From Candidatus Thorarchaeota archaeon (GTDB lineage: Archaea > Asgardarchaeota > Thorarchaeia > Thorarchaeales > Thorarchaeaceae), in contig RDNZ01000011.1 of assembly GCA_011364905.1 (NCBI GenBank), forward strand, positions 1 to 50,365: DNA of 50,365 nt, given 5' to 3'. Shown here piece by piece: positions 23,422-42,192 of the stretch. The notes under the pieces are model-generated. The model saw nothing but the letters and a program-made list of their open reading frames with translations. It was not told the DNA's origin and searched no databases. Numbering within the stretch: position 1 is the stretch's first letter; each line of letters opens with the position of its first letter. Both the position numbers and the translations under genes were made by a program.

Positions 23422-23482
23422 CTAGTAGAGTTATTATGGGGGTTTTGGAAGTGAATTTGTTATTCAATACTGAGGTGATTGT

Positions 23483-24160: not shown

Positions 24161-24162
24161 AG

Positions 24163-24945: not shown

Positions 24946-26025
24946 ATGACAGTTGAAAGCGATTCTAATCAGACAAGTGAATCCACCTCAAAAGCAGCGT
25001 ACTACGTGTGGGTTGGAGGACTTCTGTTTACAGTGATGTTTACGTTGTTGATATGGATGTTAGGTCCATTCCTTGATCCTGTCCTAGCAACACTTCTTCC
25101 GGACCAAGGGGCTGCTTGGTATTTCTGGAAACTGCCAGCTCGTGAATTCATGACGATGTTTATTGTTTGGAGCTTTTACCTCGCACATCAGTTTTCAATC
25201 TGGGCGGCGATATATTGGGCACAAAAGAATCTGACTCAATATCGCGTCAAGCCAACGACTGGCCTTACAAAGTATAACTGGTCAGCAATCATTATCAATC
25301 TGGTATTCATATTGCTGCACCTTATCCAGACCCATATCTGGTTTGACGGCCTTGCACAGGATGTACCAATCTGGACAAGTCAGGGTTCAGTCATTGTTAT
25401 GCTGGTGATTGTTCTCATCATTGAGAATCCTAGACGGGGGCTCTTTCTAGGCAAGAAGATGGGAAAGCCAATGACAGTCAGTGTGTCTGGGTTTTTCAGA
25501 AGAAATCACCCCTACATCATTGCTTGGGCGATTGTCTACACATTTTGGTTCCACCCCATGGCGTATGACCCGCAATTACTGAGCGGCTTCTTCTACATGT
25601 TTTTGCTCTTCACTCAAATCTCGTTGGCGTACACTGTTGTACATGTGAATAAGGGATGGATAGTGTTACTGGAGAGCTTCGTCGGTATTCATGCATTTAT
25701 TGTGGCTACAACTACAGCCTCTCAAGCAGCGATAGGAATCTGGGTGATGTTTGCGACTGGATTTGCCTTCATGTTTGTCTTCACATACATGTTTATTTTC
25801 AAGGTGAGAAAAGAAATTAAATTGGGAGTAATTGCTGGATACATTTCAGCTTTGGTTTGGATCTACTTGCCAAGCCAATATGGAGGATATGGAAGAGACC
25901 TGAGCTATCTCATGCGGCTGGAGTTTCTTTGGATTCCAATCATCCTCTATCTACTTGCCATAGTTTTCTCTGCAATTGTATTTCTCTACATCAAGCTGAG
26001 GCGGTCTAGAACACAGGAACATTAG
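24946..26025 (+). CDS. Uncharacterised polytopic membrane protein with several intramembrane His residues
   Basis: About 9-10 TM; HQF, HLIQTHIWFDGLAQDV, WFHP. Confidence 0.75.
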   Translation: MTVESDSNQTSESTSKAAYYVWVGGLLFTVMFTLLIWMLGPFLDPVLATLLPDQGAAWYFWKLPAREFMTMFIVWSFYLAHQFSIWAAIYWAQKNLTQYRVKPTTGLTKYNWSAIIINLVFILLHLIQTHIWFDGLAQDVPIWTSQGSVIVMLVIVLIIENPRRGLFLGKKMGKPMTVSVSGFFRRNHPYIIAWAIVYTFWFHPMAYDPQLLSGFFYMFLLFTQISLAYTVVHVNKGWIVLLESFVGIHAFIVATTTASQAAIGIWVMFATGFAFMFVFTYMFIFKVRKEIKLGVIAGYISALVWIYLPSQYGGYGRDLSYLMRLEFLWIPIILYLLAIVFSAIVFLYIKLRRSRTQEH

Positions 26026-26028
26026 GGC

Positions 26029-26053
26029 AGGGGAGTGGGTGTACTATTCCCCT
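26029..26053 (+). terminator. Hairpin after the stop of the 24946-26025 gene
   Basis: aggggagtgg pairs with ctattcccct (G-U pairs allowed). Confidence 0.45.
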
Positions 26054-26098
26054 CAGTCCTTTCAATTAGCCTCATAAAGAGGTCACTGTCAAATTGTG

Positions 26099-26160
26099 TT
26101 AGAACACGTGTTCTAATGAAATTAATTAACGCTGTGAAGCTCATGTCAGAAAGATTATAT
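26099..26160 (+). promoter_or_regulatory. Perfect 18-bp palindrome plus putative BRE/TATA upstream of hdrA
   Basis: ttagaacacgtgttctaa (26099-26116); gaaagattatat (26149-26160). Confidence 0.55.
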
Positions 26161-26210
26161 CGCCCGTCACAATGCTCAATGTATCATAATGGCATCTTGG
26201 AGAATGTTCT

Positions 26211-29200
26211 ATGGTTAGCAAGTCAGCCAAGAAAGCGGAACACAAGACCAAACCAACTGATGTCCTTGTCATAGGAGGCGGTATGGCAGGTATCAATGCC
26301 TCATTAGGACTTGCCAATGGCGGCCACCATGCCCATATGATTGAGAAGTCAGTGAACATTGGTGGAAACTATGTTGCCATTTACAAGATATTCCCGGCGC
26401 TGGAATGCTCAGCCTGTGTTATGACTCCACTCACATCATTTGTTGGTAAACATCCAAACATCACAATCCATCCTCTGTCAACTGTTGAGAAGGTGACTGG
26501 AAAAGCTGGTGATTTCACCGTCACAATTCGAAAGAGGGCTCGCTATGTGAATGAAGAGAAGTGTACAGGCTGTCAGCTTTGTATTCGATCGTGCCCAGTT
26601 GAGGTACCAAACGAATACGATAAGGGACTCTCTCTTCGAAAAGCCATCTACATGAATTTCCCGCAACAGATACCACTTATTGCAACGATTGACAGGGATG
26701 CATGTATTGGTTGTGGGACTTGTGCATCGGTCTGTCCTCAAGACTGCATTATGTACGACGATAAAGACAAAGTGTACGAGCTGAATGTAGGCTCAATAAT
26801 CATGGCCACAGGTTTTCAGGAGTACCGACCTTTAGACTACGGCGAGTATGGATATGGAATATATCCAAATGTTGTAACATCCCTGGAATACGACAGGCAG
26901 AGTCATCCGACTGGACCTACTGACTCGCACATGGTTCGTCCTTCTGATGGCAAGGAACCTGAGAAAATCCTGTTTGTGAATTGTGTTGGGAGCAGAGATG
27001 TGCGAGAGAACATCAGCGGGTATTCAAAACACTGCAATCGGGTGTGTTGTTCATTTGGTCTAAAGCTTGCGCAGGTTACAAGGATGCACTATCCTGAAGA
27101 TCACTGCAAGATTATCTATACCTATATGGACATGAGAACTGCTGGAAAGGCTCTCGAGGAATTCTTGTGGGATTCCCAGAAGAATCGCGGCATTGATTTC
27201 ATTCGTGGACGGGTATCTGAGATTCAAGAGAACCCTGACACCCACGATCTCTTCGTTAAGATGGAGAACACAGATACTGGAGAGATTATCGAGATTGATG
27301 ATATTTCCATGGTGGTGCTCAACGCAAGTTTCAGACCAAGTGAGGGTTCTGCAGAGCTTGCCAAGATTCTCAATATCGATCTTGACGAGGCGGGATGGGT
27401 AAAGGAGAAGCATGCAAATGCAGCAGCTCTTGAAACAAATCGCCCCGGAGTTTTCGTAGCGGGTTGCGCACATGGCCCCAGAGATGGTACGGATAGTGTT
27501 AATGAGGGAAAAGGTGCAGCGATGGCGGCGCACAGCATTCTACCTGTTCCTACCCCTGAGCCTGTGCCCGAGATTCCTCCAGCTGAACTCGGTGACGAAC
27601 CTCGCGTGGGTGTATTCATCTGTCACTGCGGTGGGATCATTGGTAATGAGATAAGCTCACCAGGCCTAGCAGAATGGGCAAAGGATCTACCACATGTCGC
27701 TTATGCAACAGATTACATCTTCATGTGTAGCGATCCAGGCCAGCAGCTCGTCACTGACGCAATAAAGGAGCACAAGCTGAATCGTGTGGTCGTAGGTTCA
27801 TGCTCACCCCTACAACACGAGTCAACATTTAGACATGCTTTGGAAGCTGCAGGTTTATCAGGCTACTATTTGGTCGGACCAGTCGGTCTCAGAGAACATC
27901 TTGCACTGGTCCATGTTAGCGAAGATCCAGAGGTAAGACAAGAGAAAGCGCAGGATATGATTCGTAGCGCGGTCGCAAAAGCTATCAACAATGAAGAGGT
28001 GCCTCTGAAAAAAGTGGAAGTCACCCCTGTATCAATGGTGGTTGGCGGAGGCGTTTCAGGAATGACCGCAGCTCTTGATATTGCACGAAAAGGATTCAAC
28101 GTGGTCCTTGTGGAGAAACAAGATAAGCTTGGAGGCAGACTCAATGAACTCTCACATGTCTTTCCCAAACTGGAGTCAGCACAAGACATTGTAGACGATC
28201 TTATTTCAAGGACAGAGAAGAACAAAAGGATACAAGTGCTTCTGAACTCCAAAGTTGTGGAACGCGATGGGGCCTACGGGAACTACGACATTACCGTAGC
28301 TAACACCGAATCCGGTGAGCGGTCTGTTCATCGAATTGGTTCAATGGTGATAACTGTTGGAAATGATGTCTATGAGCCAAAACAAGGCGAGTATGGTTGG
28401 GGTGAAGTTCCTGGGGTGATATCCACTCTTGAGCTGGAACGAAGGCTACGGAATGGAGAAATCAAGAAACCGCCCAAAAACCCAGTGTTCATTCACTGCG
28501 TTGGCTCACGACAGAATCCCGGAGAGGGAAATCGATACTGTTCAAGAGTATGCTGTTCGGCTGTTATTGCAATGCAGCATCAACTGGTAGAGATGTTCCC
28601 TGAGATTAAGATATTCTCAGCATTCAAAGAACACATCCGTCCATTCCCCAAGGGCATGGAAGAAATGTGGCGAGAGAATAGACAAAACGGCGTGGCTTAC
28701 CTTAGATGGGTTCGTGAACAACCAGTGACCGTCGAGAAGGATCCTGATGGTGACTCCGCCATCGTTACAGTCTATGACACGCTCTTACAACAGACCATCA
28801 AAATCAAGTCTGATATGGTGGTGCTAGCTCTGGGACTTGAGGCACCACATGATGTCAACGAATTTGCAAAAGCGATGGGCATCAATCGTGGTCAAGATGG
28901 GTTCCTCGCAGAGATGCATATGAAGTACAAGCCAGTGGAAACCACAGTGCCGGGTGTCTTCCTAGGTGTGACTTATGCGAAGAGCATAGGAGACTCAATC
29001 AATCAGGCGCGCGCTGCGGCGAGTGAGGCATGTATTCCATTGAATCTTGGCACTGTGGAGATTGAACTTCTTACTGCAGAAGTGAACCAAGATCTATGCG
29101 TAGGGTGTGACCTATGCCATTATTCTGACATTTGTCCATATGATGCTATTTCAATGATGGAAGTGGAGCCAGGTGTGAAGAAGAGTGTCACCGACGAGAT

Positions 29201-29315
29201 GCGGTGTGAGGGGTGTGGTGCATGTTGTGCCATCTGTCCCACTGGAGCTCGAGACCTCCGTTGGTGGAGGGAAAAGAGCATACTACAAGAAACTGAAGAG
29301 ATGCTGAGGGAGTGA
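26211..29315 (+). CDS. hdrA: Large HdrA-like flavoprotein with two FAD modules
   Basis: Two GGGxxG FAD motifs, CVGSR/CxxxCC twice, inserted 2x[4Fe-4S] ferredoxin, internal GVFICHCG domain, C-terminal ferredoxin. Confidence 0.92.
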   Translation: MVSKSAKKAEHKTKPTDVLVIGGGMAGINASLGLANGGHHAHMIEKSVNIGGNYVAIYKIFPALECSACVMTPLTSFVGKHPNITIHPLSTVEKVTGKAGDFTVTIRKRARYVNEEKCTGCQLCIRSCPVEVPNEYDKGLSLRKAIYMNFPQQIPLIATIDRDACIGCGTCASVCPQDCIMYDDKDKVYELNVGSIIMATGFQEYRPLDYGEYGYGIYPNVVTSLEYDRQSHPTGPTDSHMVRPSDGKEPEKILFVNCVGSRDVRENISGYSKHCNRVCCSFGLKLAQVTRMHYPEDHCKIIYTYMDMRTAGKALEEFLWDSQKNRGIDFIRGRVSEIQENPDTHDLFVKMENTDTGEIIEIDDISMVVLNASFRPSEGSAELAKILNIDLDEAGWVKEKHANAAALETNRPGVFVAGCAHGPRDGTDSVNEGKGAAMAAHSILPVPTPEPVPEIPPAELGDEPRVGVFICHCGGIIGNEISSPGLAEWAKDLPHVAYATDYIFMCSDPGQQLVTDAIKEHKLNRVVVGSCSPLQHESTFRHALEAAGLSGYYLVGPVGLREHLALVHVSEDPEVRQEKAQDMIRSAVAKAINNEEVPLKKVEVTPVSMVVGGGVSGMTAALDIARKGFNVVLVEKQDKLGGRLNELSHVFPKLESAQDIVDDLISRTEKNKRIQVLLNSKVVERDGAYGNYDITVANTESGERSVHRIGSMVITVGNDVYEPKQGEYGWGEVPGVISTLELERRLRNGEIKKPPKNPVFIHCVGSRQNPGEGNRYCSRVCCSAVIAMQHQLVEMFPEIKIFSAFKEHIRPFPKGMEEMWRENRQNGVAYLRWVREQPVTVEKDPDGDSAIVTVYDTLLQQTIKIKSDMVVLALGLEAPHDVNEFAKAMGINRGQDGFLAEMHMKYKPVETTVPGVFLGVTYAKSIGDSINQARAAASEACIPLNLGTVEIELLTAEVNQDLCVGCDLCHYSDICPYDAISMMEVEPGVKKSVTDEMRCEGCGACCAICPTGARDLRWWREKSILQETEEMLRE

Positions 29316-29319
29316 AACC

Positions 29320-29892
29320 TTGGTCTCACTAGATGGACTTCTGGCGGGTTGGGCAGTTCTGAATGACTTATTGGGGGCTCTGAAAGAGAAGGACGTCTTC
29401 ATTCCTGATCTGACCTATGCGGACCTCAGAAACTCAAAGATGAGTTTAGAGTATCTCCGTTCATTCGAGAGCGAGATTAAGTCTGGATTACAGAGCGAAG
29501 ACGACAATCGGCTTCAGACTGAAATGGAGATTCAAATTCAAAGGCTTCGAGATACACTCATGGTCTGGGCTGAGGAGAAAGCAGGTGCCGAGTATAGGAA
29601 ATCATGGGATGTACGATTCGACAGTGCAATCAGAGGAGAGAGTGAGAAATACAAACCTGAACCTCAAGTGCACATCTCAGACATTCCTAGGGACAAAGAT
29701 GTAGGATTCTTCCGTATCAAGTTGCCAGAAGACATCCCAGTGGAGATTGTTTCTGAGATGGCAGAAGACTGTATGGTGAACATCTCATTGGATGGTGAGA
29801 GACACCTTCAGGTAAGTGGCAAGAGAGAATGCGTCAGGGATGCAATGAAGAGACTTGGGCAGCTTTTCTATGGCGATAGCAAGCTAGAGTAA
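29320..29892 (+). CDS. DUF2096-like protein
   Basis: W.VL.DL, DLR..K and PRDK...RIKLP pattern resembles archaeal DUF2096 (recalled, not searched). Confidence 0.65.
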   Translation: MVSLDGLLAGWAVLNDLLGALKEKDVFIPDLTYADLRNSKMSLEYLRSFESEIKSGLQSEDDNRLQTEMEIQIQRLRDTLMVWAEEKAGAEYRKSWDVRFDSAIRGESEKYKPEPQVHISDIPRDKDVGFFRIKLPEDIPVEIVSEMAEDCMVNISLDGERHLQVSGKRECVRDAMKRLGQLFYGDSKLE

Positions 29893-29907
29893 TGGCTTGT
29901 TGGGGTT

Positions 29908-30783
29908 CTAGATTCCAAGTATTTGTTTGATTGGATCCAATGGCACCCTGTTCAGTTCATAACCTAGAGGCTCAGGATCAATGCCCATAGCCAGACCCAA
30001 AACTTGAGTGACGAAAAGAGCTGGTAACTCTATGGAATTGCCTTCGTCATCCTTAAGCCCGAGTTGTTGAATGTCAAACTGGGTGTGGCACGCGGGGCAG
30101 TTTGTGACAACACAGTTGGCTCCCGCACCATTGGCAGATATCATTTTCTCTCGGAGTATCTTTGTCGCAACCTCTTCGCTTGAAATGAGGAGTGGCGAAC
30201 CACAGCAGCTTAGTTTACGGTCCCAATGAACACTGGTTGCTCCAGTCAGTTCAATCAATTCATCGACCTTTTGAGGTAACTCAGGATCATCAAAACCTGC
30301 GACAATGGATGGACGTATGAGGTGGCAACCGGGGTGAAAGGCGACCTTCAGGCCATCCAAGCGCTTGACAATCTTCTTCTCAATCTCATCCTTCATGTCA
30401 TAGAGGACTTCAACAAAGTGACGGATTTTGACCTTTCCTGTATACTCCAAGCCTAGTGGCTTGAGGGCAGCATTGACTTTTTTCCTGTACGAATCGTCAT
30501 CATGAAGGACATGATCAGTGTCTTTTAGAGAACCAAAGCAGCCGTTGCAAGGAGTGACTATGTTATGGCCTCTCTGTCCTGCCAATGCAATGTTTCGACC
30601 AGAAAGTGAGAGCCAGCTAGTTTCATCAATCGACTTGAGAACAACAGTCCCGCAGCATGATGCACCATCAAAGTCTATTAGCTTAATACCAAGCTCCTTT
30701 GCAACTGCGCGCATGGAGGACTCATAGTTGTTGAATCTGCTTGGAATTGCACAACCGAGAAAAACTTCGTAACTCTGAGTCAT
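29908..30783 (-). CDS. hdrB: HdrB-like subunit (divergent type)
   Basis: Two CCG domains: FLGC, SCCG, PCNGC, HPGCH, SCCG, NCPACH. Confidence 0.9.
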   Translation of the reverse strand: MTQSYEVFLGCAIPSRFNNYESSMRAVAKELGIKLIDFDGASCCGTVVLKSIDETSWLSLSGRNIALAGQRGHNIVTPCNGCFGSLKDTDHVLHDDDSYRKKVNAALKPLGLEYTGKVKIRHFVEVLYDMKDEIEKKIVKRLDGLKVAFHPGCHLIRPSIVAGFDDPELPQKVDELIELTGATSVHWDRKLSCCGSPLLISSEEVATKILREKMISANGAGANCVVTNCPACHTQFDIQQLGLKDDEGNSIELPALFVTQVLGLAMGIDPEPLGYELNRVPLDPIKQILGI

Positions 30784-30784
30784 C

Positions 30785-31303
30785 TTACTCCTCCACCTCC
30801 AGCTTCATGAGCTTGTTCTTATCTAGCAACTTCTTTGTGTCTGCTATGTTCAACTCAGGAACCGGGTCTAACCCGAGATCGTCACGCTCCCATTCTGTAG
30901 GAGCATATAGTCGTCCTGTGTCGTAGAGGGATTGACGAGCTCCGATGTAACCTGCAGGTGTAATTCCCTTCTTGAAGGCCAGGTTCTTCAGGCCGAACAA
31001 GATGTCAGTGATCTCAATTCCCTGCGGGCAACGTTGCTGACATGTATAGCATGTGGTGCAAAGCCACACCATATCGGTTTCGAGAACTTCTTTTAGACCA
31101 AACAGGAGCATCCGCATGACTTCATGTATCTGGATGTTCACCTTGTCTGACACCGGACACCCAGCACTACACTTGGCACACTGGAAACAAGTAGTGAGGT
31201 CTTGTCCACCAATAAGTTTGGAAACCTCATTCGTGAACTCAGCGTCCAATGCTTTGAACTTTTTACCATCAAATGACTTGAATTGACCCCAAGACTCGGT
31301 CAC
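30785..31303 (-). CDS. hdrC: HdrC subunit
   Basis: CFQCAKCSAGCP and WLCTTCYTCQQRCP. Confidence 0.9.
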   Translation of the reverse strand: MTESWGQFKSFDGKKFKALDAEFTNEVSKLIGGQDLTTCFQCAKCSAGCPVSDKVNIQIHEVMRMLLFGLKEVLETDMVWLCTTCYTCQQRCPQGIEITDILFGLKNLAFKKGITPAGYIGARQSLYDTGRLYAPTEWERDDLGLDPVPELNIADTKKLLDKNKLMKLEVEE

Positions 31304-31305
31304 TC

Positions 31306-34300
31306 TTATCGCCTCCTCGGTCGCAATGGACTTGGCCCAAGCTTGTCAGCCAGGTCCGCAAGTTTCCGAACGGTTTCTGCCCAGATAGAACCCTCGCTCG
31401 CGCTAATGTGTGTAAACTGGAGCCGATCAGGCTCAAGCCCTGCTTTCTCGATGATTTTCTTTGCAATGGCATATCTACGCTCAAACGTGATGTTTCCATC
31501 TACATAGTGACAGTCGCCTATATGGCACCCCGATATCCAGACCATATCAGCACCAAGTCGGAATGCCTCCAAGATGTGCTGTACGCTCACACGCCCCGTA
31601 CACATGACACGAATGTCCCGCACATTCGGTGGCTGCTGGAAACGCGATACCCCGGCACTGTCAGCCCCCGCATATGAGCACCAGTTACAGAGGACCGTTA
31701 GAATCCTTGAGTCGTTAGCAGGCATACTCTCCAAGGCTGTACGAATCTCGGAGATAATCTGGTCATCAGTGAAATGCTTCATGGTGATAGCGCCTGAGGG
31801 ACATCCTGCGCCACACTTACCACAGCCTTGACAGAGCACTGGATTCGTGACCGCATAGTCATGCCCTCCATCTCCGGGGACTACCTCGATTGCGTTGTAT
31901 GCGCAGTTAATCTCGCATGTTCCACAACCGACGCATATCTCAGGATCCACAACGGAAACTATGGCTTCAGCCTTTCTTATACCTCTGATGAGTGGGACAA
32001 GTGCTCTCGAGGCTGCAGCCTGACCCTGAGCGATTGACTCACCGATTTTTTTCGGTGCCGTTGCCGTCCCCGCCACATATACGCCATCAGTCTGGAAGTC
32101 CACAGGCCGAAGTTTTGGATGTGCCTCCATGAAAAATCCGGAAAGATTCAATGGTACCTTGAACAGCTCAGAGAGTTCCTTGTTGGGGCGTGGCACCATG
32201 GCAGTGGCAAGGACAACATGATCAAGATCAATGGCAAGTTCGACACCTAGAATCTGGTCCATCGCAGTTATGCTCAAGGCTTTGTCTTTACCCTTTTTGA
32301 CAGCAGGCGGAGAGTCTTTATCAAATCTGATAAAAACAACGCCTCTTTTGCGGGCCTCTCGATACTTGTCTTCAGCATCATAGAATACTCGGAGATCGCG
32401 GTAGAAATGGAATACCCGCGAGTTAGGATATTTGTCAAGAAGTTCCAGGGTGTGCTCGAGCGCTACAGTACAACATATACTGGAACACCAAGTTCTGGAA
32501 CCTTCAAGTGATGCCTCCTCTCGGGAACCCGCGCAGTGAATGACTCCAAATGTTTCACCATCCTGCAAGCCCTCACCACTCGCTATGCGATTGTTGAGCT
32601 CGGTTTCCGTCATCACTTCCGGAAGTTTTTGCAGTCCATAGAGACCCTTCTCTTCTAGCGCAACAGCACCGGTGGTGACAATCACGACCCCAACTTTCAC
32701 GGTTTCTTTCTTCTTCCCTGTCCTGATAACGACCTCGAATTCACCGATTGACCCTTTTGCATCCACAACCTCGGAGTTCAACATCAGTTTGATGTTCTCC
32801 TTCCCAGAAATCCGACCTTCATAGTCAGCCACTATTTCCGAGGTAGGTCTGTTATCGAAATCTACTGTGGCGAGCTCGTTGAGATAACCACCTACCCGAT
32901 CTTGCTTCTCCACTAGATAGACATTGAATCCCTTTTTAGCAATCACTTCGGTTGCAGCCATTCCAGCAATGCCGGCACCAATGATGAGAGCTGATGGCTC
33001 TATCTGAGTCACAGCTTCTTCCTGTGGCTCGAGAAGCTTTGCTCTTGAAACAGACATGCGAACCAGGTCCATAGCTTTCAAGGTGGCCTCATCCTTGTCA
33101 GACTGATGGACCCAAGAACAGTGTTCACGAATATTGGCGAGTTCGAACAGGTATTTGTTTAGTCCAGCCTCTTCGATGGTAGCTCTGAACAGTGGTTCAT
33201 GAGTTCTTGGAGTGCATGATGCGACTACCAAACGATTGAGTTTGTGTTCCTTTATCGCATCCTTGATGACAACCTGTGCATCTGACGAACATGAATAGAG
33301 AAGGTTCTCAGCATAGACTACGTTGGGCAGAGTACTGGCATATCGAGTGACCTCGCCAACATCCACCGTCCCAGCGATATTGATACCGCACGAACAGATG
33401 ACTACGCCAATTCGTGGTTCTGCAGTCATAAGCTCCAAGTCTTCTTCCGTCAACGCCTCTGTTTCATCACCCTGTGGAATGCTAATATCGAGAGCCGCAA
33501 GCGCCGCGGCAGCGCTCCCTTGAGCGACAGAGTCGGGGATGTCTTTTGGCATATGGACTGCGCCACACATATGGACACCCGGTACACCTGTTTCAGAGAT
33601 CATTAGAGACTTCGCATCAGGATGCAAGAAGCCGGACTCGTCTGTTTTGAGCCCCAGTTGTTCGAACACAGGTGTGCGAGCAGAAGGAACCATTGCAGGA
33701 CAAAGTACAACGAGATCGTACGTGTCAACCAAAACACTGTGACCCTTTGCATCACTATGTCGGACTATGAGGTTTCCAGAGCCATATTCTTCCTGAATTT
33801 CACTCGGTATCCCCTTTACATAATGAATATCGTACTCTGTTTCACCCCTGACAAGAAACTCCTCGAAGCCCTTACCAAACACTCGCAAGTCATTGTACAA
33901 TACATCGATGTGGACCTCAGGGGTGTGCTCCTTCGTAATGATAGCTTCCTTTGTTGCATAGGTACAGCATATCTTTGAACAGTAAGAACAATGGTTTATG
34001 TCTCTTGAACCCACACATTGAATGAAGGCTATCCGGTGAGGCTCACGACCATCTGATGGGCGCATTACAACGCCACCAGTTGGTCCACTTGCTGACACCA
34101 TCCGTTCATATTCAAGAGCGTTGACGACGTTGGGGAATCGGCCATAACCATATTCTGGAACACTTGCCGGGTCAAGTAGGTCATAACCTGTAGCTACGAT
34201 TATTGAACCTGCATTTATCACTCTCGTTTCATCAGCAATCTCAAAGTTGATGGCCTCAGCCTTGCAGGTCTTTTCACAGACCATGCATTCTATGCAGTTC

Positions 34301-34761
34301 TCGACATCAATGGTAGCTATATTCGGTACTGCCTGCGGAAACGGGATATAGGCTGCCTTTCGCATTTTGAGACCAAGGTCATATTCGTTTGGCACCTCTA
34401 TTGGACAGACTCTCTGACAATCACCACAGCCAGTGCACTTCTCTGAGTCTACTCGACGGGTATGAGTCAACACCTTGACGGTGAAGTCACCCTGTTTGCC
34501 TGTGACCTCAGTCACTTCGGAGTAGGCAAGAATCTCAATATTTGGATGACGCGAGGAGTCAACCATCCATGGACCTTGGATACACATACTACAATCCAGT
34601 GTGGGAAATGTCTTGTCGAGCTGAGACATATGACCCCCGATAGAGGGCTTTTTCTCAACTAGAAACACCTTGACTCCCATTTCGGCGAGATCGAGTGCTG
34701 CACGCATTCCTGAGATACCGGCGCCAATAACGACGACTGGTTTCGATATGGGCTCAGCCAT
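31306..34761 (-). CDS. hdrA: Large HdrA-like protein with two FAD modules, fused to C-terminal MvhD
   Basis: KTFPTLDCSMC, two FAD modules, EAHPKLRPVD, MvhD motifs CNWCSYAGAD, RVMCTGRV, GCHIGDCHY. Confidence 0.93.
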   Translation of the reverse strand: MAEPISKPVVVIGAGISGMRAALDLAEMGVKVFLVEKKPSIGGHMSQLDKTFPTLDCSMCIQGPWMVDSSRHPNIEILAYSEVTEVTGKQGDFTVKVLTHTRRVDSEKCTGCGDCQRVCPIEVPNEYDLGLKMRKAAYIPFPQAVPNIATIDVENCIECMVCEKTCKAEAINFEIADETRVINAGSIIVATGYDLLDPASVPEYGYGRFPNVVNALEYERMVSASGPTGGVVMRPSDGREPHRIAFIQCVGSRDINHCSYCSKICCTYATKEAIITKEHTPEVHIDVLYNDLRVFGKGFEEFLVRGETEYDIHYVKGIPSEIQEEYGSGNLIVRHSDAKGHSVLVDTYDLVVLCPAMVPSARTPVFEQLGLKTDESGFLHPDAKSLMISETGVPGVHMCGAVHMPKDIPDSVAQGSAAAALAALDISIPQGDETEALTEEDLELMTAEPRIGVVICSCGINIAGTVDVGEVTRYASTLPNVVYAENLLYSCSSDAQVVIKDAIKEHKLNRLVVASCTPRTHEPLFRATIEEAGLNKYLFELANIREHCSWVHQSDKDEATLKAMDLVRMSVSRAKLLEPQEEAVTQIEPSALIIGAGIAGMAATEVIAKKGFNVYLVEKQDRVGGYLNELATVDFDNRPTSEIVADYEGRISGKENIKLMLNSEVVDAKGSIGEFEVVIRTGKKKETVKVGVVIVTTGAVALEEKGLYGLQKLPEVMTETELNNRIASGEGLQDGETFGVIHCAGSREEASLEGSRTWCSSICCTVALEHTLELLDKYPNSRVFHFYRDLRVFYDAEDKYREARKRGVVFIRFDKDSPPAVKKGKDKALSITAMDQILGVELAIDLDHVVLATAMVPRPNKELSELFKVPLNLSGFFMEAHPKLRPVDFQTDGVYVAGTATAPKKIGESIAQGQAAASRALVPLIRGIRKAEAIVSVVDPEICVGCGTCEINCAYNAIEVVPGDGGHDYAVTNPVLCQGCGKCGAGCPSGAITMKHFTDDQIISEIRTALESMPANDSRILTVLCNWCSYAGADSAGVSRFQQPPNVRDIRVMCTGRVSVQHILEAFRLGADMVWISGCHIGDCHYVDGNITFERRYAIAKKIIEKAGLEPDRLQFTHISASEGSIWAETVRKLADLADKLGPSPLRPRRR

Positions 34762-35257
34762 TATTCTGTCACTCCGAAGAGGTATTGCGTCGATTCAGAC
34801 CGCCCGATAAAATGTTTACCATCCGACACTAATAATATGAAAGCCATTGGCAAATATTGAATGGCGCCAAACTTTGGGTGTTAACTATTTTTAACCCATG
34901 CACTTAATATTACATGGATAACGTCCCAACATTATGAAGGCGACTAGGCTCTACACTCGAGCTTACCTCACCCAAATAAAATACCGGGAGGACTTGCATC
35001 GGACTGACGATCTCAGTAAAATTGAGATAGTCAACTTCTCGAGACCTCCAAAAATCCATTCAAGTTGATGACTGTTTTTTCTATCTTTTTGCTTGTAGTC
35101 GAATTAGTGCCAATAATCATAATGAAGCATTCTGAAGTGTCTTAAAGGCCTGTAGTTCAAAAGGACCGCTATGAGCGCTTCTTGTACTTCTTATTGTGTA
35201 GGTTGCTCAATGGTTATTATAAATAGAAATGAGAAGACTTGTTTGGTGAATGATTAG

Positions 35258-36502
35258 TTGAAGAGAAGACCATTACTCGGACACGTATTACTTCTTTCAA
35301 TTCTGTTCATGCTCGTTTCATCCTTTGCCACTGTAAGCGCGTTCACGCTGAGTGATGGAGGTGATGACCAGCATGATGACACGAGCGAACCGACTGAAAA
35401 TCGAGATTCTGATGGAACAGTCAGTATACAGACCGATGTCATGACTATAGTGCTCAACCCCCATCTACCATCTTATCAGTACTGGTACACCCCAGATGAT
35501 AATGGATCTCTGGCTCGATTCATGGTCAACTTCATGATGATTGTGGAGTTTGAGGACAGCAATGGTGATGGTGTATACCAACCTAATGAAACACTTGCTT
35601 TCGCGCCTCTTGATGCGTTTGATTGGAACCTTCAGACTGGGACAGTCAAAAACGGGGATGGCCAGAATATCGAGGTATACAGTTCCTACACGAAGGGTGG
35701 TCTAAGTGACCATTGGGAGGATGACTGGTTTAAGAATTGGATGCCGGGATACAACAATCCTGAGGAGCAACAGCCATCTATCCTATCTGATGAGGGTAGC
35801 AACGATTACAACTTCTCCAGATTCGAGCATATGACACTGCAGTTCTATAGTCATATCTACATGAACAACTACACTGGTACTGTGACCGATGATGGAGGCA
35901 TTAAGGCAACCTACATGGTTTTGGGCGGAGTAGAACTCAAGATTGACATCGGAATCGGGAACTTTCCATTCCTATCCACAACATCAAAGGTGGCTGTACT
36001 GAACTATCTGCGCGAGGATGTTGCTTCTAGTGAGGAACACGATCACTACTTTGTCATGCACGAAGATACTGGCGACTATGAACATGACTCCAGTGAAACA
36101 ATGCAGCAGCTCGGAGAAGTTTTCAAGAATCACGATGAGAACCATGATGGCATTGGTGATACAACACAGGAGATTTCATTAGTTGAAGCCACAACAGATG
36201 TCACCCGCGGTTTCTATACCTGGTTGAATACTGCCGTAATGACCATGCTGAATGGATCACAGGTCGCAGTTGATGTGGGAGCCTCGTTTTGGACAGATGG
36301 CAATGGTCTCCTACTCTTCTTTGCATATCCCAATTTTGATGGAGGATCAATCCTTCATGACCCATCATTGAAACTTATTGAAGGTGGTTCACCTTACACG
36401 CCGCCGGTTGGTCTGTTTAACATACCAATCGAGTACTATGCCTTATTTGGTGCCACAGTCGTTTTGATTGCAATTGTCGGCTTCGCAGTCAAACGCCGTT
36501 GA
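35258..36502 (+). CDS. Secreted acidic protein with C-terminal TM anchor
   Basis: Signal peptide, DSNGDG motif, C-terminal TM followed by KRR. Confidence 0.8.
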   Translation: MKRRPLLGHVLLLSILFMLVSSFATVSAFTLSDGGDDQHDDTSEPTENRDSDGTVSIQTDVMTIVLNPHLPSYQYWYTPDDNGSLARFMVNFMMIVEFEDSNGDGVYQPNETLAFAPLDAFDWNLQTGTVKNGDGQNIEVYSSYTKGGLSDHWEDDWFKNWMPGYNNPEEQQPSILSDEGSNDYNFSRFEHMTLQFYSHIYMNNYTGTVTDDGGIKATYMVLGGVELKIDIGIGNFPFLSTTSKVAVLNYLREDVASSEEHDHYFVMHEDTGDYEHDSSETMQQLGEVFKNHDENHDGIGDTTQEISLVEATTDVTRGFYTWLNTAVMTMLNGSQVAVDVGASFWTDGNGLLLFFAYPNFDGGSILHDPSLKLIEGGSPYTPPVGLFNIPIEYYALFGATVVLIAIVGFAVKRR

Positions 36503-36510
36503 AGAACCCA

Positions 36511-36540
36511 GGAGGGAGGTGACTCCCTCCACTATCTTTC
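36511..36540 (+). terminator. GC-rich hairpin after the stop codon
   Basis: ggagggag-gtga-ctccctcc, followed by actatctttc. Confidence 0.6.
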
Positions 36541-36582
36541 TATAGAACCGGAGTATTCATAGAGGGAATAGAATTAGAAGAT

Positions 36583-37611
36583 GTGGTTCAGATGTTCAGC
36601 AACAAGCGGGCTATGATTGAGGTTGTTCTCACTCTCGTGGTCCTGTTATATGCAAGTTCGTTTGTACAGGTTAACGGGCTGCAGGTAGGTAACCAAGACA
36701 TCCTTATGACTAACATGAACATCATGACCACACTTGGAACGGATTGCGATACTACAGTAAACATTGAGTCTGAAGTGCTGAATGTTGGATCTACAGATTA
36801 TGATCACTTTGACATCAGGGTTGATGTAAGGAATCTCAATGTGTCCGAAGCACTATTGAATGGAACTGCTGTCCAGACTGAAATAATTCCTCAGAGCAAT
36901 TACATGGTCGTGCGACTATTTCCGATTAGTCCAATGGCAGTAGGCACTGAGTTCATACTCGATCTCAACCTTACGACGCAATGTCTCCAAGAAAACATTG
37001 GTTTAAGCGAAGACGGACAAATGTATCTGAATCATCTAATCTACTACATTAGACCTCTCAATGAGATTCAAAACCTAACGTTCGCAGTTGCCCTTCCAGC
37101 ACACGCGGCACTGCGGACAGGGGTTCCAGCTCCTCTTTTTCCAAGCCCATCTTCGAACTACACAAATGGACAAAACACTGTTTATGTTTGGTTCAATGAG
37201 CAGCTGCTACCTGGGCAAGAAGTTGCCTATGTTGTGAAATACGAGATTCCCGCAGCAAGCATGCAGATGGGGCAGACTCCTCTGGGTCTTTCCCAATTGA
37301 TTCCCCTTGGTGCCTTGTTCCTCATACTTGGAGCTGCTGTTACTCTCTTCATAGAACGCATTCCTCTAATAATCAAGCGTTTCAAGACTAGGACCATAGT
37401 CACACCAATCAGACTCTCTAGACAAGAAGAGGACGTTCTGTCATTTCTAACAAAGAAAGGCGGCTCTTGTTCTCAGCGGGAGATCTACGAAGAGCTCAAT
37501 ATCTCACAGTCTCTGGCAAGTACAATCTTGACCTCACTAGAGGATAGGAAACTGATTCGAAGATTCAGAGAGGGAAGAGAGAACATGGTTCACATCATGG
37601 AAGACATATGA
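36583..37611 (+). CDS. Membrane-anchored regulator: extracellular domain, TM, C-terminal wHTH (COG2512-like)
   Basis: Signal peptide, beta-rich domain with N-x-S/T sequons, TM, then LSRQEEDVL...SQREI...ISQS..STILTSLEDRKLIRRFREGREN. Confidence 0.82.
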   Translation: MVQMFSNKRAMIEVVLTLVVLLYASSFVQVNGLQVGNQDILMTNMNIMTTLGTDCDTTVNIESEVLNVGSTDYDHFDIRVDVRNLNVSEALLNGTAVQTEIIPQSNYMVVRLFPISPMAVGTEFILDLNLTTQCLQENIGLSEDGQMYLNHLIYYIRPLNEIQNLTFAVALPAHAALRTGVPAPLFPSPSSNYTNGQNTVYVWFNEQLLPGQEVAYVVKYEIPAASMQMGQTPLGLSQLIPLGALFLILGAAVTLFIERIPLIIKRFKTRTIVTPIRLSRQEEDVLSFLTKKGGSCSQREIYEELNISQSLASTILTSLEDRKLIRRFREGRENMVHIMEDI

Positions 37612-37619
37612 AGTTAAAT

Positions 37620-38540
37620 TCATGCTCTAGCTTCTATGCCAAGCCGTTTCCAATTCGGCTGGTTCTTCCGTTGCATGTACTGCAGGTGAGTTGTCAGTCC
37701 AAACTCTTCAGGTTCATGTCCAAACGCCAAAGCCAAGAGTTCCATAACATGTAGGATATCGAAATGGTATTCCGCGTCGAAAAACTTCTGGATTTCCACC
37801 TGACCCATATCAAGTTGAAGCTCACAGAATGGACAAGGTGTCACAACAACGTCTGCACCACCCGCCTCTAAGAGACTATCAAACTTCTGCTTAGTAAAAT
37901 CAAGTGCTGTTTTTACATCAGCTGTTCGGACTGCACCCCCAGCCCCGCAGCAGATCAACTCATCCTTATATGGCACATACTCGGCTCCTGAGGCTTCACA
38001 AATCTCTTTGAATATGTGCGGATGCTCTGAGTCGTCTTTCTTCTTGACCTGTTTGGGTCGCATCCAATGGCAGCCTGGATGTATCGCCATCCGAACGCCT
38101 TTGAGAGGCCGCGTCGCTTTCTCCCGGATCTTCTCAAGTCCGACTAGTGAGTAGAGGGCATCAACATAGTGCCAGACCTCTATTGTTCCCTTGAACTCAC
38201 GACCTATCTCTGCTAGATTCTCGTTCACAGCTGCCCTGAGCTCATCATCGTGCTTGAGTTCATGGTTCGTATCCCAAAGACTAGCGAAACAGCCATTGCA
38301 GCCAGTCGTTATAGGGTGGCCACCAGCCTCAGCAATTGTCAGATTGCGAGCTGCGATGGTTGCCCAAGTTACGCGGTCAAAAGACCCGAAAACTCCGGGA
38401 GCTGGACAACATGTTGCCCCTTCCATATCAAGAAGTTCAACTCCGAGGTCCTTGAATACGAGTTTCGCTGCCGCTTCAATACTTGGATAGCGGTGGGGTA
38501 TTATGCATCCTAGAAAATGATAGAAAGACTGTTTGGGCAC
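37620..38540 (-). CDS. hdrB: HdrB subunit (methanogen-like)
   Basis: FLGC, TCCPAPGVFGSFD, CNGCF, HPGCH, CCGAGG, CPFC. Confidence 0.93.
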   Translation of the reverse strand: MPKQSFYHFLGCIIPHRYPSIEAAAKLVFKDLGVELLDMEGATCCPAPGVFGSFDRVTWATIAARNLTIAEAGGHPITTGCNGCFASLWDTNHELKHDDELRAAVNENLAEIGREFKGTIEVWHYVDALYSLVGLEKIREKATRPLKGVRMAIHPGCHWMRPKQVKKKDDSEHPHIFKEICEASGAEYVPYKDELICCGAGGAVRTADVKTALDFTKQKFDSLLEAGGADVVVTPCPFCELQLDMGQVEIQKFFDAEYHFDILHVMELLALAFGHEPEEFGLTTHLQYMQRKNQPNWKRLGIEARA

Positions 38541-38542
38541 GA

Positions 38543-39106
38543 TTACTCCTCCTTCTTCTCTTCCTTTTCTTCTACCAGTTTGTCAAAACCAGTCTTCTTG
38601 GCAATCTTCCTAATCTCTTCGATTGCCTCGGGATATCTACTCGCATTGGGAGGCACTCGTTCTACGCCCACTTTTTCTCGTAGGACTTCCCATGATTCTT
38701 TATCGAGCGGTACAGCATGGCCAGCCTCCAAGACTTTGAGTGCGGTTTTTTGATGTGGAACGAGCATGTAACCCTCAGCGACAGCAATGTTCCTGATGGC
38801 CTTGATTACATCTGTTGGTTTTACGTCCTGCGGGCACCGGTCTGTGCAGGTATAGCAGGTTGTGCAAAACCATAGCTCAGGTGCGGAGATGCACTGCTCC
38901 TTGAGACCAAGAAGTGCCTTGCGAATTATCCCACGGACAAGATAATTCGTACGTGCACCAGCTGGGCAGCTGCCGCTGCATGTGCCGCATTGGTAGCAGT
39001 TCTGGACATTAGGACCCCCTGTCTTTATGATCATCTGGATAAATGAGTCATCTGGGGCATCAATGACAATAGGGGATTTTTCATCAGCACTAGTCAATAT
39101 TACCAC
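38543..39106 (-). CDS. hdrC: HdrC subunit
   Basis: CYQCGTCSGSCP, WFCTTCYTCTDRCP, GHAVP. Confidence 0.93.
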   Translation of the reverse strand: MVILTSADEKSPIVIDAPDDSFIQMIIKTGGPNVQNCYQCGTCSGSCPAGARTNYLVRGIIRKALLGLKEQCISAPELWFCTTCYTCTDRCPQDVKPTDVIKAIRNIAVAEGYMLVPHQKTALKVLEAGHAVPLDKESWEVLREKVGVERVPPNASRYPEAIEEIRKIAKKTGFDKLVEEKEEKKEE

Positions 39107-39352
39107 CGACTATAGAGGAGTTGGATTTCATGCTAAAATAGGTTACCGATTGGTCGTAAAATTCATTCACTCAAAGGTCCTGTGTATTAACACTGTTATG
39201 TCCAAATCATGATGTGAGAATTGGAAATCGGGGACTATTCGGATCTAACGGATACAGATTTAATCGAACAGGTCTAAAACGAAAGCTCCCTACATCTCAA
39301 TCCTTATATCCCGTTGAACGAGGGAGCTACTATTGAACACTGAGGACCAAGC

Positions 39353-39901
39353 ATGACTGATAGCACCTCCTGGGAAACCATTGATAATGATGCCATTGAT
39401 AGGGAATTTGCCGATGAGATTGTTAAATCAGGAGTAGATAGAATTCGAACATGTATACAATGCGGGACCTGCACAAGTGTCTGCCCAAGTGGAAGACACA
39501 CTGCTTTCAAAACCCGTGAACTAATGCGAAAAGCCGTTCTTGGCTTAAAAGATGAAGTTCTGTCAAGTGAGGATTTATGGATGTGTTCAACGTGCTATAC
39601 ATGTCTTGAAAGATGCCCGCGGCAGATAAGAATCACTGATGCTATTATCTCAATGAGAAACATGGCAGTAGACCATGGATTCATGCTTCCTGAACATAAG
39701 AAAGCCTCTCAAAAACTCCTTTCGACTGGTCATGCTGTACCAATAGATGAGGTGAATCAGGAGTTACGAAAAGAGCTTGGACTTCAGGAACTCCCTCCAA
39801 CAACACATTCGAACAAGAAGGCTCTCAAGCAAGTACAAGAGATTTTGAAAAGAACCGGTTTCAAAGACCTCGTAGAGAGTCAGAAGCGGGAGAGTAATTG
39901 A
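39353..39901 (+). CDS. hdrC: HdrC subunit
   Basis: CIQCGTCTSVCP, WMCSTCYTCLERCP, TGHAVP. Confidence 0.93.
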   Translation: MTDSTSWETIDNDAIDREFADEIVKSGVDRIRTCIQCGTCTSVCPSGRHTAFKTRELMRKAVLGLKDEVLSSEDLWMCSTCYTCLERCPRQIRITDAIISMRNMAVDHGFMLPEHKKASQKLLSTGHAVPIDEVNQELRKELGLQELPPTTHSNKKALKQVQEILKRTGFKDLVESQKRESN

Positions 39902-39902
39902 A

Positions 39903-40799
39903 GTGGCTGAAGCGCAAACTTACTCGTTTTTCCTTGGTTGCGTCATGCCAAATCGTCTGCCAAATCTAGAGGCGAGCATTCGAGTAGTACTCCCGAAACT
40001 AGGCGTAAATCTTGAGGACCTAGAGGGGGCAAGTTGTTGTCCTGCCCCAGGAGTTATCCGCTCTTTTGATGAACCAACGTGGCTAGCACTTGCATCAAGA
40101 AACCTAGCCCTCGCAGAGATGTCCGGTCATGACATCATCACTGGATGCAATGGTTGCTACTGCACATTCAAAGAAGCACTTGCTGAAATCAGAGAGCATC
40201 CTCGTCGGTTGAAGGAGGTTCAGAACATCTTCAAAGGCATGGGGCTTAAGTTCGACGGCAGAGTTGAAGCTAAGCATGTTATAGAGGTCATCTCTGAACT
40301 GGGACCAGACTACGTACGGAAAAAGGTGACACATCCTCTAAAAGGAATCAAGGTTGGAGTTCACTATGGGTGCCATCTTTTGAAACCAACCAATAACAGA
40401 CCTTGGGAAAAAACGCAGAATCCGACTTTTCTTGATGCATTAGTCGAAGCAACCGGAGCTGAAAGTACAGAATACAAGGACAAAGACATTTGCTGCGGAG
40501 CTGGAGGCGGTGTCAGAGGCTCGCAAGTAGCAGTGAGTTTTGATATTGCCAAGGAGAAGCTCGATAATCTTCTATATGCAGGTGTTGACTGCCTTGTCAA
40601 TGTGTGTTCGTTCTGTCACCTGCAATATGAAACAGCCCAGGTCCAGCTGAACAAAGAATTAGGAGAGAAGAAGTATCAGATTCCGGTTCTCTATTACACA
40701 CAGCTACTTGGTCTAGCGATGGGGCTTGATCCAAACGAACTGGGTCTTACCAAGCATATGGTGGATACACAGCCACTGCTTGACAAGATCCTAACCTAG
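39903..40799 (+). CDS. hdrB: HdrB subunit (methanogen-like)
   Basis: FLGC, SCCPAPG, CNGCY, HYGCH, CCGAGGGVR, CSFCHLQ. Confidence 0.93.
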   Translation: MAEAQTYSFFLGCVMPNRLPNLEASIRVVLPKLGVNLEDLEGASCCPAPGVIRSFDEPTWLALASRNLALAEMSGHDIITGCNGCYCTFKEALAEIREHPRRLKEVQNIFKGMGLKFDGRVEAKHVIEVISELGPDYVRKKVTHPLKGIKVGVHYGCHLLKPTNNRPWEKTQNPTFLDALVEATGAESTEYKDKDICCGAGGGVRGSQVAVSFDIAKEKLDNLLYAGVDCLVNVCSFCHLQYETAQVQLNKELGEKKYQIPVLYYTQLLGLAMGLDPNELGLTKHMVDTQPLLDKILT

Positions 40800-41725
40800 A
40801 ACCACTTTCTAGCTGCATAGTACACAACTAATGCCATCACTCCACTTGAAAAGAGAAGAATGGCTACAAAAGCTAGAATTCGAGGTTCCAAACCAGGGGT
40901 TGTCGTAGTAGTAGTTGTTGTTGTGGTCGTGGTTGTTATTGTGCCAGCAGTGAAAGTGCCATCAGACTTGTCTGAGTTATAATAGATACCATCTGTGACA
41001 CGAACGCGGACTATGTATGTGTCTGAACGGTCCAGGTTACCACAATCCCATTCAAACCATGTTTGATTAAGAGAGGAAGCCAATGTTTCAAAAGATTGTC
41101 CGGAGTCATCTGAAAACATAACATCGAACCTAAGAACAGAATCAGCATTCACATCTGAGGCAGTCCATGTGATATTATGAGGGGATGTCCAGTCCTCTCC
41201 ACCATTCGGAGCAATCACTCTTACCTTGGGAACAAAGAAGTTGCCGATGTAGATGTCTGTGAACTGGACTACCTTGATAGACCCGTTTGTTAGCCATGCG
41301 GTTGACGTGATTATGCAACTCGCATTATTTCCAAGAGCTCGAGTATCTATTTCCAATGTTGGTTGATCAAGTTCTAGATAAAGAACACTAGGAATGGCTG
41401 GAGCATCGATTTCAAGTCTTGTCCGGTTCACTAGCGAAGGAGTCCACTCTGATTTTAGAATAACATGGTCACCAGCTATAGTGTCGCCAGACTTCACTGG
41501 AGTGTCAATCAGATTGGTCCGAGATGTGTAACTGAGGTTTACTGCGGCAATATCGGCTGAGGGGAGAAACTCCACAGGCGGAAGGGCATATGACGCGGCA
41601 TTATGAAACTTGAAACTCGTAACAGGGAGGGCTAGTGAGAACACTAACAGTCCAAGCACTACGAATCCTATTCTCGTATTCTTCAGGCACGTATTCCTAA
41701 TTAGAGCATTCAGTCTGGGTTTCAA
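40796..41725 (-). CDS. Surface protein: signal peptide, Ig/FN3-like domain, poly-Thr linker, C-terminal TM
   Basis: PKVRVIAPNGGE..W...ITWTASD...YIVRVRVTDG, Thr run, TM followed by RKWF. Confidence 0.8.
   Translation of the reverse strand: MKPRLNALIRNTCLKNTRIGFVVLGLLVFSLALPVTSFKFHNAASYALPPVEFLPSADIAAVNLSYTSRTNLIDTPVKSGDTIAGDHVILKSEWTPSLVNRTRLEIDAPAIPSVLYLELDQPTLEIDTRALGNNASCIITSTAWLTNGSIKVVQFTDIYIGNFFVPKVRVIAPNGGEDWTSPHNITWTASDVNADSVLRFDVMFSDDSGQSFETLASSLNQTWFEWDCGNLDRSDTYIVRVRVTDGIYYNSDKSDGTFTAGTITTTTTTTTTTTTTPGLEPRILAFVAILLFSSGVMALVVYYAARKWF
40899..40942 (-). repeat. Degenerate ACN trinucleotide run encoding the poly-Thr linker
   Basis: gttgtcgtagtagtagttgttgttgtggtcgtggtt... Confidence 0.75.
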
Positions 41726-42192
41726 TCTCGTTCACCCTCCGGAAATGGTTGTTCTCGCCATACCTTAAGTGCCTCGTACCATAGCACAAGGCATGCGGAT
41801 ATAAGTAGGACAAGAAGGACCATTGAGTACCAATCAGTGCTTAACCAGAACAACAAAGACCCCAAAGCTGCAGTGAGCGATGTGTAGAATGTTGCATAGA
41901 ACAGGAATCGGGGAACCATCATACGACCCCTCCCCATGAATTGATTCAAGATTCCTATCCGAACATCACGTTTAATCGTATACTGGCCATGGACATCTTT
42001 GTCAACAAGTCCGTGTTCTCGTAAACGCTCTAAATGATGCATTGACAAGGATGGACTCGACAATTCGGCCCCCCGTTGTATCTCTCGAGCAGTCAGAGGT
42101 TCTGGATGACGCAACATATACCAATAGACACTTAGAGTCTTGCCTTTAATGAGCTCTGCCAACTCGTCATCGGTTGGTTCTGCGTTATTCAA
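41722..42192 (-). CDS. N-terminal wHTH (ArsR-like) regulator with two C-terminal TM helices
   Basis: KGKTLSVYWYML...REIQR...SSPSLSMHHLERL..GLVDKD..G.Y, then PRFLFY and two hydrophobic helices. Confidence 0.82.
   Translation of the reverse strand: MNNAEPTDDELAELIKGKTLSVYWYMLRHPEPLTAREIQRGAELSSPSLSMHHLERLREHGLVDKDVHGQYTIKRDVRIGILNQFMGRGRMMVPRFLFYATFYTSLTAALGSLLFWLSTDWYSMVLLVLLISACLVLWYEALKVWREQPFPEGERD

Follow-up and report, generated by a model that had tools for sequence, protein, structure and literature searches.

In Asgard archaea, heterodisulfide reductase (Hdr) complexes rank with the most strongly expressed energy genes, and the substrate of these complexes has been termed an 'unidentified heterodisulfide' (PMC11291895). 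Which disulfide such enzymes act on, and by what electron path, is the question raised by an island of hdr genes at positions 26211-40799 of the stretch of Candidatus Thorarchaeota archaeon DNA analyzed here (the window, 50,365 bp), which forms the first part of a 71-kb contig (RDNZ01000011.1) in a metagenome-assembled genome (MAG) of 3.08 Mb that is 81% complete and 4.6% contaminated. Open reading frame calling combined with Pfam and NCBIfam profile matches confirmed what a preliminary description had read from the DNA letters: two double-module HdrA proteins, one of them fused to MvhD, three hdrC-hdrB pairs and a DUF2096 gene (Table 1). The explanation that we favor, with moderate confidence, is that the island encodes soluble Hdr-type enzymes of flavin-based electron bifurcation (or confurcation) in which each fused HdrA offers one path and the couple served is not CoM-S-S-CoB, the heterodisulfide of coenzyme M (CoM) and coenzyme B (CoB).

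Two HdrA proteins with unequal halves

We derived the domain layout of the HdrA proteins from alignments to the solved chains 5ODC_A and 9SFI_A together with domain BLAST. HdrA1 (module 1 at approximately aa 10-440, module 2 at approximately aa 463-1032) and HdrA2 share one two-module layout, to which HdrA2 adds a C-terminal MvhD. In both proteins the GxGxxG motif of the flavin adenine dinucleotide (FAD) fold and the HA4 Cys set, with all four Cys in module 2, occur in both modules. The FPxxxCxxC loop (Cys194/Cys197), an inserted 2x[4Fe-4S] ferredoxin domain and a Lys at the K409 position of 5ODC are present in module 1 and absent from module 2, while the N-terminal-type Cys domain and the C-terminal 2x[4Fe-4S] ferredoxin are present in module 2 and absent from module 1, as is the MvhD of HdrA2. 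Opposite K409 of 5ODC_A, module 2 of the two proteins has Glu or Ala, and this asymmetry holds among orthologues: the module 1 position is Lys in 41/41 HdrA1 and 58/58 HdrA2, and the module 2 position is Lys in none (0/41 and 0/58), being Ala, Thr or Ser in HdrA1 and mainly Glu in HdrA2. Across these 99 orthologues the FPxxxCxxC motif occurs exactly once per protein, and position 197 is Cys in HdrA1 and HdrA2.

Two published observations bear on this layout. Lys409 hydrogen-bonds N5 of the proposed bifurcating FAD (PMC6405883), and in a cryo-EM model one protomer's N-terminal and C-terminal domains, with an MvhD-like subunit, serve the FAD', HA4' and HA5' of its partner (PMC12350162). Module 1 of both proteins carries the features of a bifurcating HdrA (FAD fold, HA4 Cys and Lys409), and Cys197 and the N-terminal domain are complementary between the two halves, as in the heterodimeric or fused HdrA type of Chadwick et al. 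By these sequence features, HdrA1 and HdrA2 are predicted to be asymmetric single-chain pseudo-dimers. The layout would fit a single arm, module 2, that feeds a single core, module 1, and so one bifurcating path per polypeptide, because module 1 alone keeps Lys409, the Cys197 loop and the inserted ferredoxin. Each giant HdrA would then be a fused heterodimeric HdrA pair that stands in for the symmetric (HdrA)2 core found in methanogens. The mobile-arm parts (N-terminal Cys domain, C-terminal ferredoxin and, for HdrA2, also MvhD) would come from module 2, and module 1 would give the sole competent core, with FAD and the Lys409 equivalent, HA4 directed toward HdrC/HdrB, Cys197 and the inserted ferredoxin domain, which would reduce ferredoxin.

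In comparison with the methanogen MvhAGD-HdrABC, Fdh-Hdr and Elp-Hdr complexes (5ODC, 7BKB, 8RVU, 9SFI; PMC12350162), the island HdrAs align in their FAD and FeS domains, Lys409 and HA4 Cys, and the 2x[4Fe-4S] of HdrC, the double CCG non-cubane sites of HdrB and the MvhD domain also align. However, the methanogen HdrA is homodimeric whereas each island HdrA is one chain with two unequal halves, and the island has no donor module in cis in a lineage without Mcr and ComA. A closer likeness is found in the tandem or fused HdrA3/4, 5/6 and 12/13 of anaerobic methanotrophic archaea (ANME) and in Moorella MetFV-HdrABC-MvhD, where the complementary loss of Cys197 and of the N-domain has been read as a pseudo-heterodimer (Chadwick et al. 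2022, PMC9012536). In HdrA3/4 of ANME it is the N-terminal half that has the N-domain and lacks Cys197 (PMC9012536), but the order in the island is reversed: the first half holds Cys197, the insert and the Lys, and the second half the N-domain and C-terminal ferredoxin. Methanosarcina acetivorans HdrA2B2C2 (Yan et al. 2017, reviewed in PMC6019823) also has a C-terminal MvhD on HdrA and an operon without a hydrogenase, although its HdrA has a single module and CoM-S-S-CoB is reduced with F420H2. The NCBIfam profile NF040770 scores HdrA2::MvhD at 1129 against a cut-off of 1100, a score inflated by the two modules. Further, a fusion survey has reported that Thor- and Lokiarchaeota have hdrA in multiple copies and a double HdrA joined to MvhD (PMC11237513); the latter is the same protein type, given there without domain dissection, synteny or a link to three HdrCB pairs or DUF2096. 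The suggestion in the preliminary description that this is an undescribed system was too strong, given that the fused HdrA-HdrA-MvhD of Thorarchaeota (PMC11237513) and the heterodimeric HdrA logic of ANME (PMC9012536) were already known. The island is a class-wide conserved variant of a known Hdr bifurcation system, not a new kind.

The order of module 1 then module 2 (then mvhD) is also present as split genes on contig C15, next to mvhG-mvhA, and on contig C7, so the window HdrAs would be fused versions of a layout that the genome also employs in other places. In total the genome holds at least nine HdrA genes, eight HdrB and seven MvhD domains. The Mvh-linked locus on C15 reads hdrA(946 aa)-hdrC-hdrB-module1(432)-module2(588)-mvhD-mvhG-mvhA, and a second C15 locus has two hdrCB pairs, a 1126-aa HdrA, mvhD and a split module1/module2 pair. 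The C7 locus (18375-26785) reads hdrC-hdrB-module1-module2::mvhD, with a 754-aa Fe-S protein and an acyl-CoA dehydrogenase encoded next; canonical hdrA::mvhD genes lie on C16 and C30. As side observations, the C7 set is maybe an Hdr complex tied to acyl-CoA oxidation or reduction, and the 1126-aa and 946-aa HdrAs of C15 (131676-135056 and 172275-175115) have insertions of about 400-500 aa, located between the inserted ferredoxin and the second half of the flavin domain, that recall the NfnB-type insertions described for ANME-1 HdrA.

Three HdrBC heads in a conserved neighborhood

All three window HdrB (a, b and c, after their hdrC-hdrB pairs) keep the ten Cys of two CCG motifs, as do five other paralogues (8/8), and all three HdrC keep both CxxCxxCxxxC motifs. 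The HdrB are mutually 37-41% identical. In a midpoint-rooted maximum-likelihood tree of 27 HdrB, with no methanogen sequences among them, they fall in three separate Thorarchaeota-wide clades with support of 100/100 (a), 100/100 (b) and 100/99 (c), and the HdrB copy of C7 groups with clade a. Heads b and c are similar to each other at the active-site loops, and similar to methanogen HdrB as well, to which b scores 330 bits, c 328 and a 244, while head a is unlike them in the loops that follow both CC motifs. Judged from these sequences, the heads are old, distinct and under constraint, and hence are no decaying duplicates. Degeneracy of the extra HdrBC copies, a possibility that the preliminary description had put up for checking, is rejected by the intact Cys motifs and the separate class-wide clades.

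A scan of a genome collection with HdrA2::MvhD as the query gave 72 loci at 71-91% identity, including two closed chromosomes (CP070761 and CP070658), with record titles that are mostly Thorarchaeota and otherwise Promethearchaeota, Hermodarchaeota or untyped archaeal MAGs. The conserved order runs POR - arsR - o309 - hdrB_c/hdrC_c diverging from hdrC_b/hdrB_b, then a variable spacer, then hdrA2::mvhD-hdrC_a-hdrB_a converging on DUF2096-hdrA1. Among 44 loci with adequate downstream flank hdrC_a was found in 43, hdrB_a in 41, DUF2096 in 42 and hdrA1 in 36, and among 34 with adequate upstream flank pair b was found in 29 and pair c in 26-27. Because dozens of independent MAGs and both closed chromosomes share the order, a chimeric assembly is excluded, and the island, which had been flagged for this check, is genuine. 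It is a Thorarchaeia-wide, vertically kept neighborhood. Given the block of exosome, SBDS and proteasome genes in the same window, the island sits in the core chromosome.

The four transcription units listed in the preliminary description are all present, although it overlooked a fifth, o414/o342. In the window hdrA2::mvhD, hdrC_a and hdrB_a are separated by 1-2 nt, and the gap from hdrA2 to hdrC_a is 1-4 nt in nearly every locus; these three genes are a self-contained operon. Pairs b and c diverge from a 246-bp spacer. The spacer from hdrB_b to hdrA2 has a minimum of 252 bp across loci and reaches 7.9 kb, which marks it as an insertion hot spot, and a five-gene, sHdr-like operon hdrC_b-hdrB_b-hdrA2-hdrC_a-hdrB_a is not supported with a spacer so long and so variable. 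The o414/o342 insert is an accessory insertion and no part of the Hdr system: among the 34 upstream-flanked loci o414 occurs in 15 and o342 in 7, and a paralogous pair is found on contig C10. The o414 product is secreted, with a signal peptide and a C-terminal membrane anchor, and the o342 product is membrane-tethered with DUF7343/MarR winged helix-turn-helix (wHTH) domains. No selenocysteine or interrupted genes were found in the window.

Table 1. Positions of the island genes and of neighboring features within the window.
Feature	Position	Strand	Remarks
Exosome Rrp41/Rrp42/Rrp4, SBDS, proteasome alpha	6905-11026	-	housekeeping block
HTH_34 gene	24163-24513		wHTH regulator
Eight-helix membrane protein	24913-26025	+	no Pfam match; 185 bp upstream of hdrA1
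Palindrome TTAGAACACGTGTTCTAA	26099-26116	none	perfect, 18 bp; upstream of hdrA1; unique in the window
hdrA1	26211-29315	+	1034 aa; two FAD/FeS modules, without MvhD
DUF2096 gene	29320-29892	+	PF23100 and PF09869; 4 nt past hdrA1
hdrB_a	29908-30783	-	divergent head; TIGR03288 273, under cut-off 345; both CCG motifs intact
hdrC_a	30785-31303	-	2x[4Fe-4S]; TIGR03290 102, under cut-off 160
hdrA2::mvhD	31306-34761	-	1151 aa; MvhD domain aa 1015-1151
o414 and o342	35258-37611	+	variable insert, outside the Hdr system
hdrB_b	37620-38540	-	TIGR03288 380, over cut-off 345; methanogen-type head
hdrC_b	38543-39106	-	TIGR03290 196.5, over cut-off 160
hdrC_c	39353-39901	+	TIGR03290 211.5, over cut-off 160
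hdrB_c	39903-40799	+	TIGR03288 370, over cut-off 345; methanogen-type head
ArsR-type HTH gene, then surface protein	40796-42192	-	HTH product membrane-tethered; poly-Thr linker in surface protein
2-Hydroxyacyl-CoA dehydratase block	45502-48771	-	HGD-D pair and BcrAD/BadFG-type activator, adjoining an AMP-forming ligase

Within this neighborhood HdrA1-DUF2096 has no head of its own, and it presumably employs HdrCB_b and/or HdrCB_c, or shares HdrCB_a. The lack of a head for HdrA1, the ancient divergence and individual conservation of three HdrB clades beside two HdrAs, and the different loops of head a could all suggest a modular hub, in which the same HdrA cores would accept the three HdrCB pairs as alternatives, each pair having a disulfide of its own to reduce. 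We consider this unlikely. Head swapping is without evidence, the other Hdr loci of the genome pair one HdrCB with one heterodimeric HdrA pair, and heads b and c are alike at the active-site loops as well as close to methanogen HdrB. Alternatively, the heads could be redundant isoenzymes that perform the same reaction and differ just in regulation or donor coupling, as the abundance of hdr genes in the genome and the candidate operator found upstream of hdrA1 only (see below) would allow; we regard this as more doubtful still, since three old, class-wide clades with distinct active-site loops would be unusual for simple redundancy.

Several points weigh against the favored reading of fused, one-path HdrAs. 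Module 2 retains GxGxxG and the four HA4 Cys, so that this half may still bind FAD plus a second HdrBC, or a non-bifurcating flavin. A PDB sequence search with HdrA1 and HdrA2 found no fused-HdrA structure. The presumed pairing of HdrA1 with head b or c draws on proximity only, the hdrB_b-hdrA2 spacer, an insertion hot spot, measures 252 bp or more in every case, and the completeness of the MAG is just 81%. Gene content, motifs, asymmetry, conservation and the lack of Mcr and ComA are observed here; how the electrons travel and from which donor, which heads serve which HdrAs, and in which direction the reaction runs are what we infer.

The disulfide and the electron donor

Neither the MAG nor any of the 87 species genomes that represent the class, of which 24 are of high quality, gave a McrA, and ComA, an enzyme of CoM biosynthesis, was above its cut-off in 0/87, with ComE-type matches far below theirs and with alternative CoM routes and CoB synthesis unsearched. 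Because McrA and ComA are at 0/87 above cut-off, the disulfide of the island enzymes is likely non-methanogenic, as the preliminary description had considered probable when it suggested a check for a complete Mcr pathway. We thus judge it very unlikely that heads b and c genuinely act as CoM-S-S-CoB reductases, with the coenzymes obtained or made by an unrecognized route, even though both pairs (and not pair a) score over the NCBIfam equivalog cut-offs of HdrB and HdrC (TIGR03288/TIGR03290) and both HdrB score 328-330 bits to the solved methanogen protein. No DsrC was found in the genome.

The contig gave no match to McrA, a [NiFe]-hydrogenase large subunit or a molybdopterin (Fdh-type) protein, in line with the earlier statement that mcr, mvhAG and fdh are missing from the window. 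The genome-wide search for mvhAG that the preliminary description proposed located mvhA-mvhG-mvhD on C15 (164.9-167.1 kb), beside its own Hdr genes and away from the island contig; it is the sole MvhAG set and the only [NiFe] hydrogenase of its type. The island therefore differs from Mvh-Hdr (group 3c) loci in having neither mvhA nor mvhG beside its hdr genes. The MvhD of HdrA2 would have to dock a donor encoded elsewhere, for which the MvhAG of C15 is the only one of its kind, and an F420H2- or ferredoxin-linked donor would also be possible. The thiol/disulfide couple would in any case differ from CoM-S-S-CoB.

What else might the couple be? The sulfur-oxidizing, Hdr-like sHdr-LbpA system with its lipoate-binding protein (Cao et al. 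2018, PMC6067878) likewise places several HdrBC heads around one HdrA, as does the Ehe cluster of Culexarchaeia (PMC9723716), and their link to a lipoyl carrier is shared with Asgard relatives of heads b and c. In contrast to sHdr-LbpA, the island has no lbpA/gcvH, lplA, tusA or dsrE, and these genes are absent from 74 orthologous Thorarchaeota loci as well, with no search aimed at TusA and DsrE; further, sHdrA (6TJR) has 349 aa whereas the island HdrAs are large and carry ferredoxin domains.

By analogy to sHdr-LbpA, the methanogen-type heads b and c might reduce a protein-bound lipoyl disulfide on a GcvH-like carrier, an idea published in 2022 for Culexarchaeia and their GcvH-containing Ehe cluster (PMC9723716). 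In several Asgard families a GcvH-like protein of an 'ESGKW' type, which retains the lipoyl-Lys, adjoins Hdr or CCG genes. In one (G092:C84:61000-79000, at about 8700-12400 of locus L099) gcvH-like - lplA (for a lipoate ligase) - hdrC - hdrB - DUF2096 lie on one strand, adjoining Mrp/Nuo-type antiporter subunits, and the HdrB scores 400 bits to methanogen HdrB. A second (G132) has lplA-gcvH-hdrA, and two more (G112 and G129) have fdhA-hdrC-hdrB-hdrA::mvhD facing gcvH and a thioredoxin gene. In three Thorarchaeota genomes (G079, G005 and G003; loci L136/L137/L141) an hdrD-like gene (Fer4 and CCG), a glcD-like FAD oxidase and o379 converge on an ESGKW-type gcvH, a block that was not found in this MAG. 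HdrB from the gcvH-linked Asgard loci is sister to clade b (100/96), and none of the five non-Thor genomes of this set has McrA. Because of this sister relationship, the 400-bit copy and the lack of McrA there, a lipoylated carrier is a concrete candidate for the disulfide. However, neither GcvH nor LplA lies in or near the island in the 74 Thorarchaeota loci, the assembled part of this MAG has no ESGKW-type GcvH and several of the adjacencies are convergent; as an account of heads b and c we think it improbable. Separately, a second GcvH-like gene at C19:45733-46044 is cut by the contig end and is followed by two DGC-domain proteins (Cys-rich, putative Zn-binding).

DUF2096, flanking genes and biological meaning

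DUF2096 has one copy in the genome, at the position where mvhD stands in the sister operons. Among 1.84 billion proteins its homologues form 26 representative clusters (E up to 0.001), and those that bear an organism name are all Asgard; the Pfam DUF2096 family additionally matches Methanocaldococcus jannaschii. An AlphaFold model (pLDDT, the predicted local distance difference test score, of 81) has a helical bundle and a KH-like alpha/beta domain, for which Foldseek gave weak KH-domain matches only. Just four residues are invariant (W11, W96, R124 and G167). Because no Cys is conserved, we reject a role as electron carrier. An obligate partnership with Hdr is weakened, as five of the six non-Thor Asgard DUF2096 loci long enough to judge (a seventh, of 2.8 kb, was too short) have no Hdr gene within about 6-9 kb, the single exception being the G092 locus with gcvH-like and lplA genes. 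One relative is fused to an Arc/MetJ regulator, and our literature search found no paper mentioning DUF2096. An adaptor role or a regulatory role is possible.

Upstream of hdrA1 stands the palindrome TTAGAACACGTGTTCTAA, whose 14-bp core is at the same place in 5 close relatives, making it by sequence a candidate operator. No common regulatory motif of k >=10 was found across the three promoter regions. The eight-helix membrane protein upstream of hdrA1 holds its position in many Thorarchaeota loci. At the other end, the ArsR-type HTH and surface-protein pair overlaps the stop codon of hdrB_c by 4 nt and is conserved beside the island, and with o342 and the HTH_34 gene the wHTH regulators around the island, membrane-associated or small, number three. 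Further neighbors in the window, which speak for the favored explanation, are ferredoxin-linked and fermentative: 2-oxoacid:ferredoxin oxidoreductase, aldehyde:ferredoxin oxidoreductase, and 2-hydroxyacyl-CoA dehydratase with its activator. The dehydratase block is an amino-acid or hydroxy-acid fermentation module needing low-potential electrons.

As a whole, the earlier interpretation of the island is partly supported. A bolder reading would join its parts into a half-of-sites machine, made of two one-flavin HdrA pseudo-dimers and distinct heads, with b and c acting on a protein-bound dithiol (a lipoylated GcvH-like carrier) and with DUF2096, in place of MvhD, serving as a non-redox adaptor or regulator of HdrA1. 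We hold this combination to be a long shot, but, if true, it would put a name to the 'unknown heterodisulfide' that has long been sought for Asgard Hdr enzymes.

What is notable about the island is its conserved single-chain asymmetry with reversed module order, its three heads side by side and its DUF2096 at the MvhD position. With one arm-to-core electron path set apart in each chain, the fused HdrAs could serve to test the mobile-arm model of bifurcation, and three intact adjacent heads permit a direct comparison of substrates. The island is thus a compact, strongly conserved test bed for the question of what Hdr enzymes reduce in Asgard archaea.

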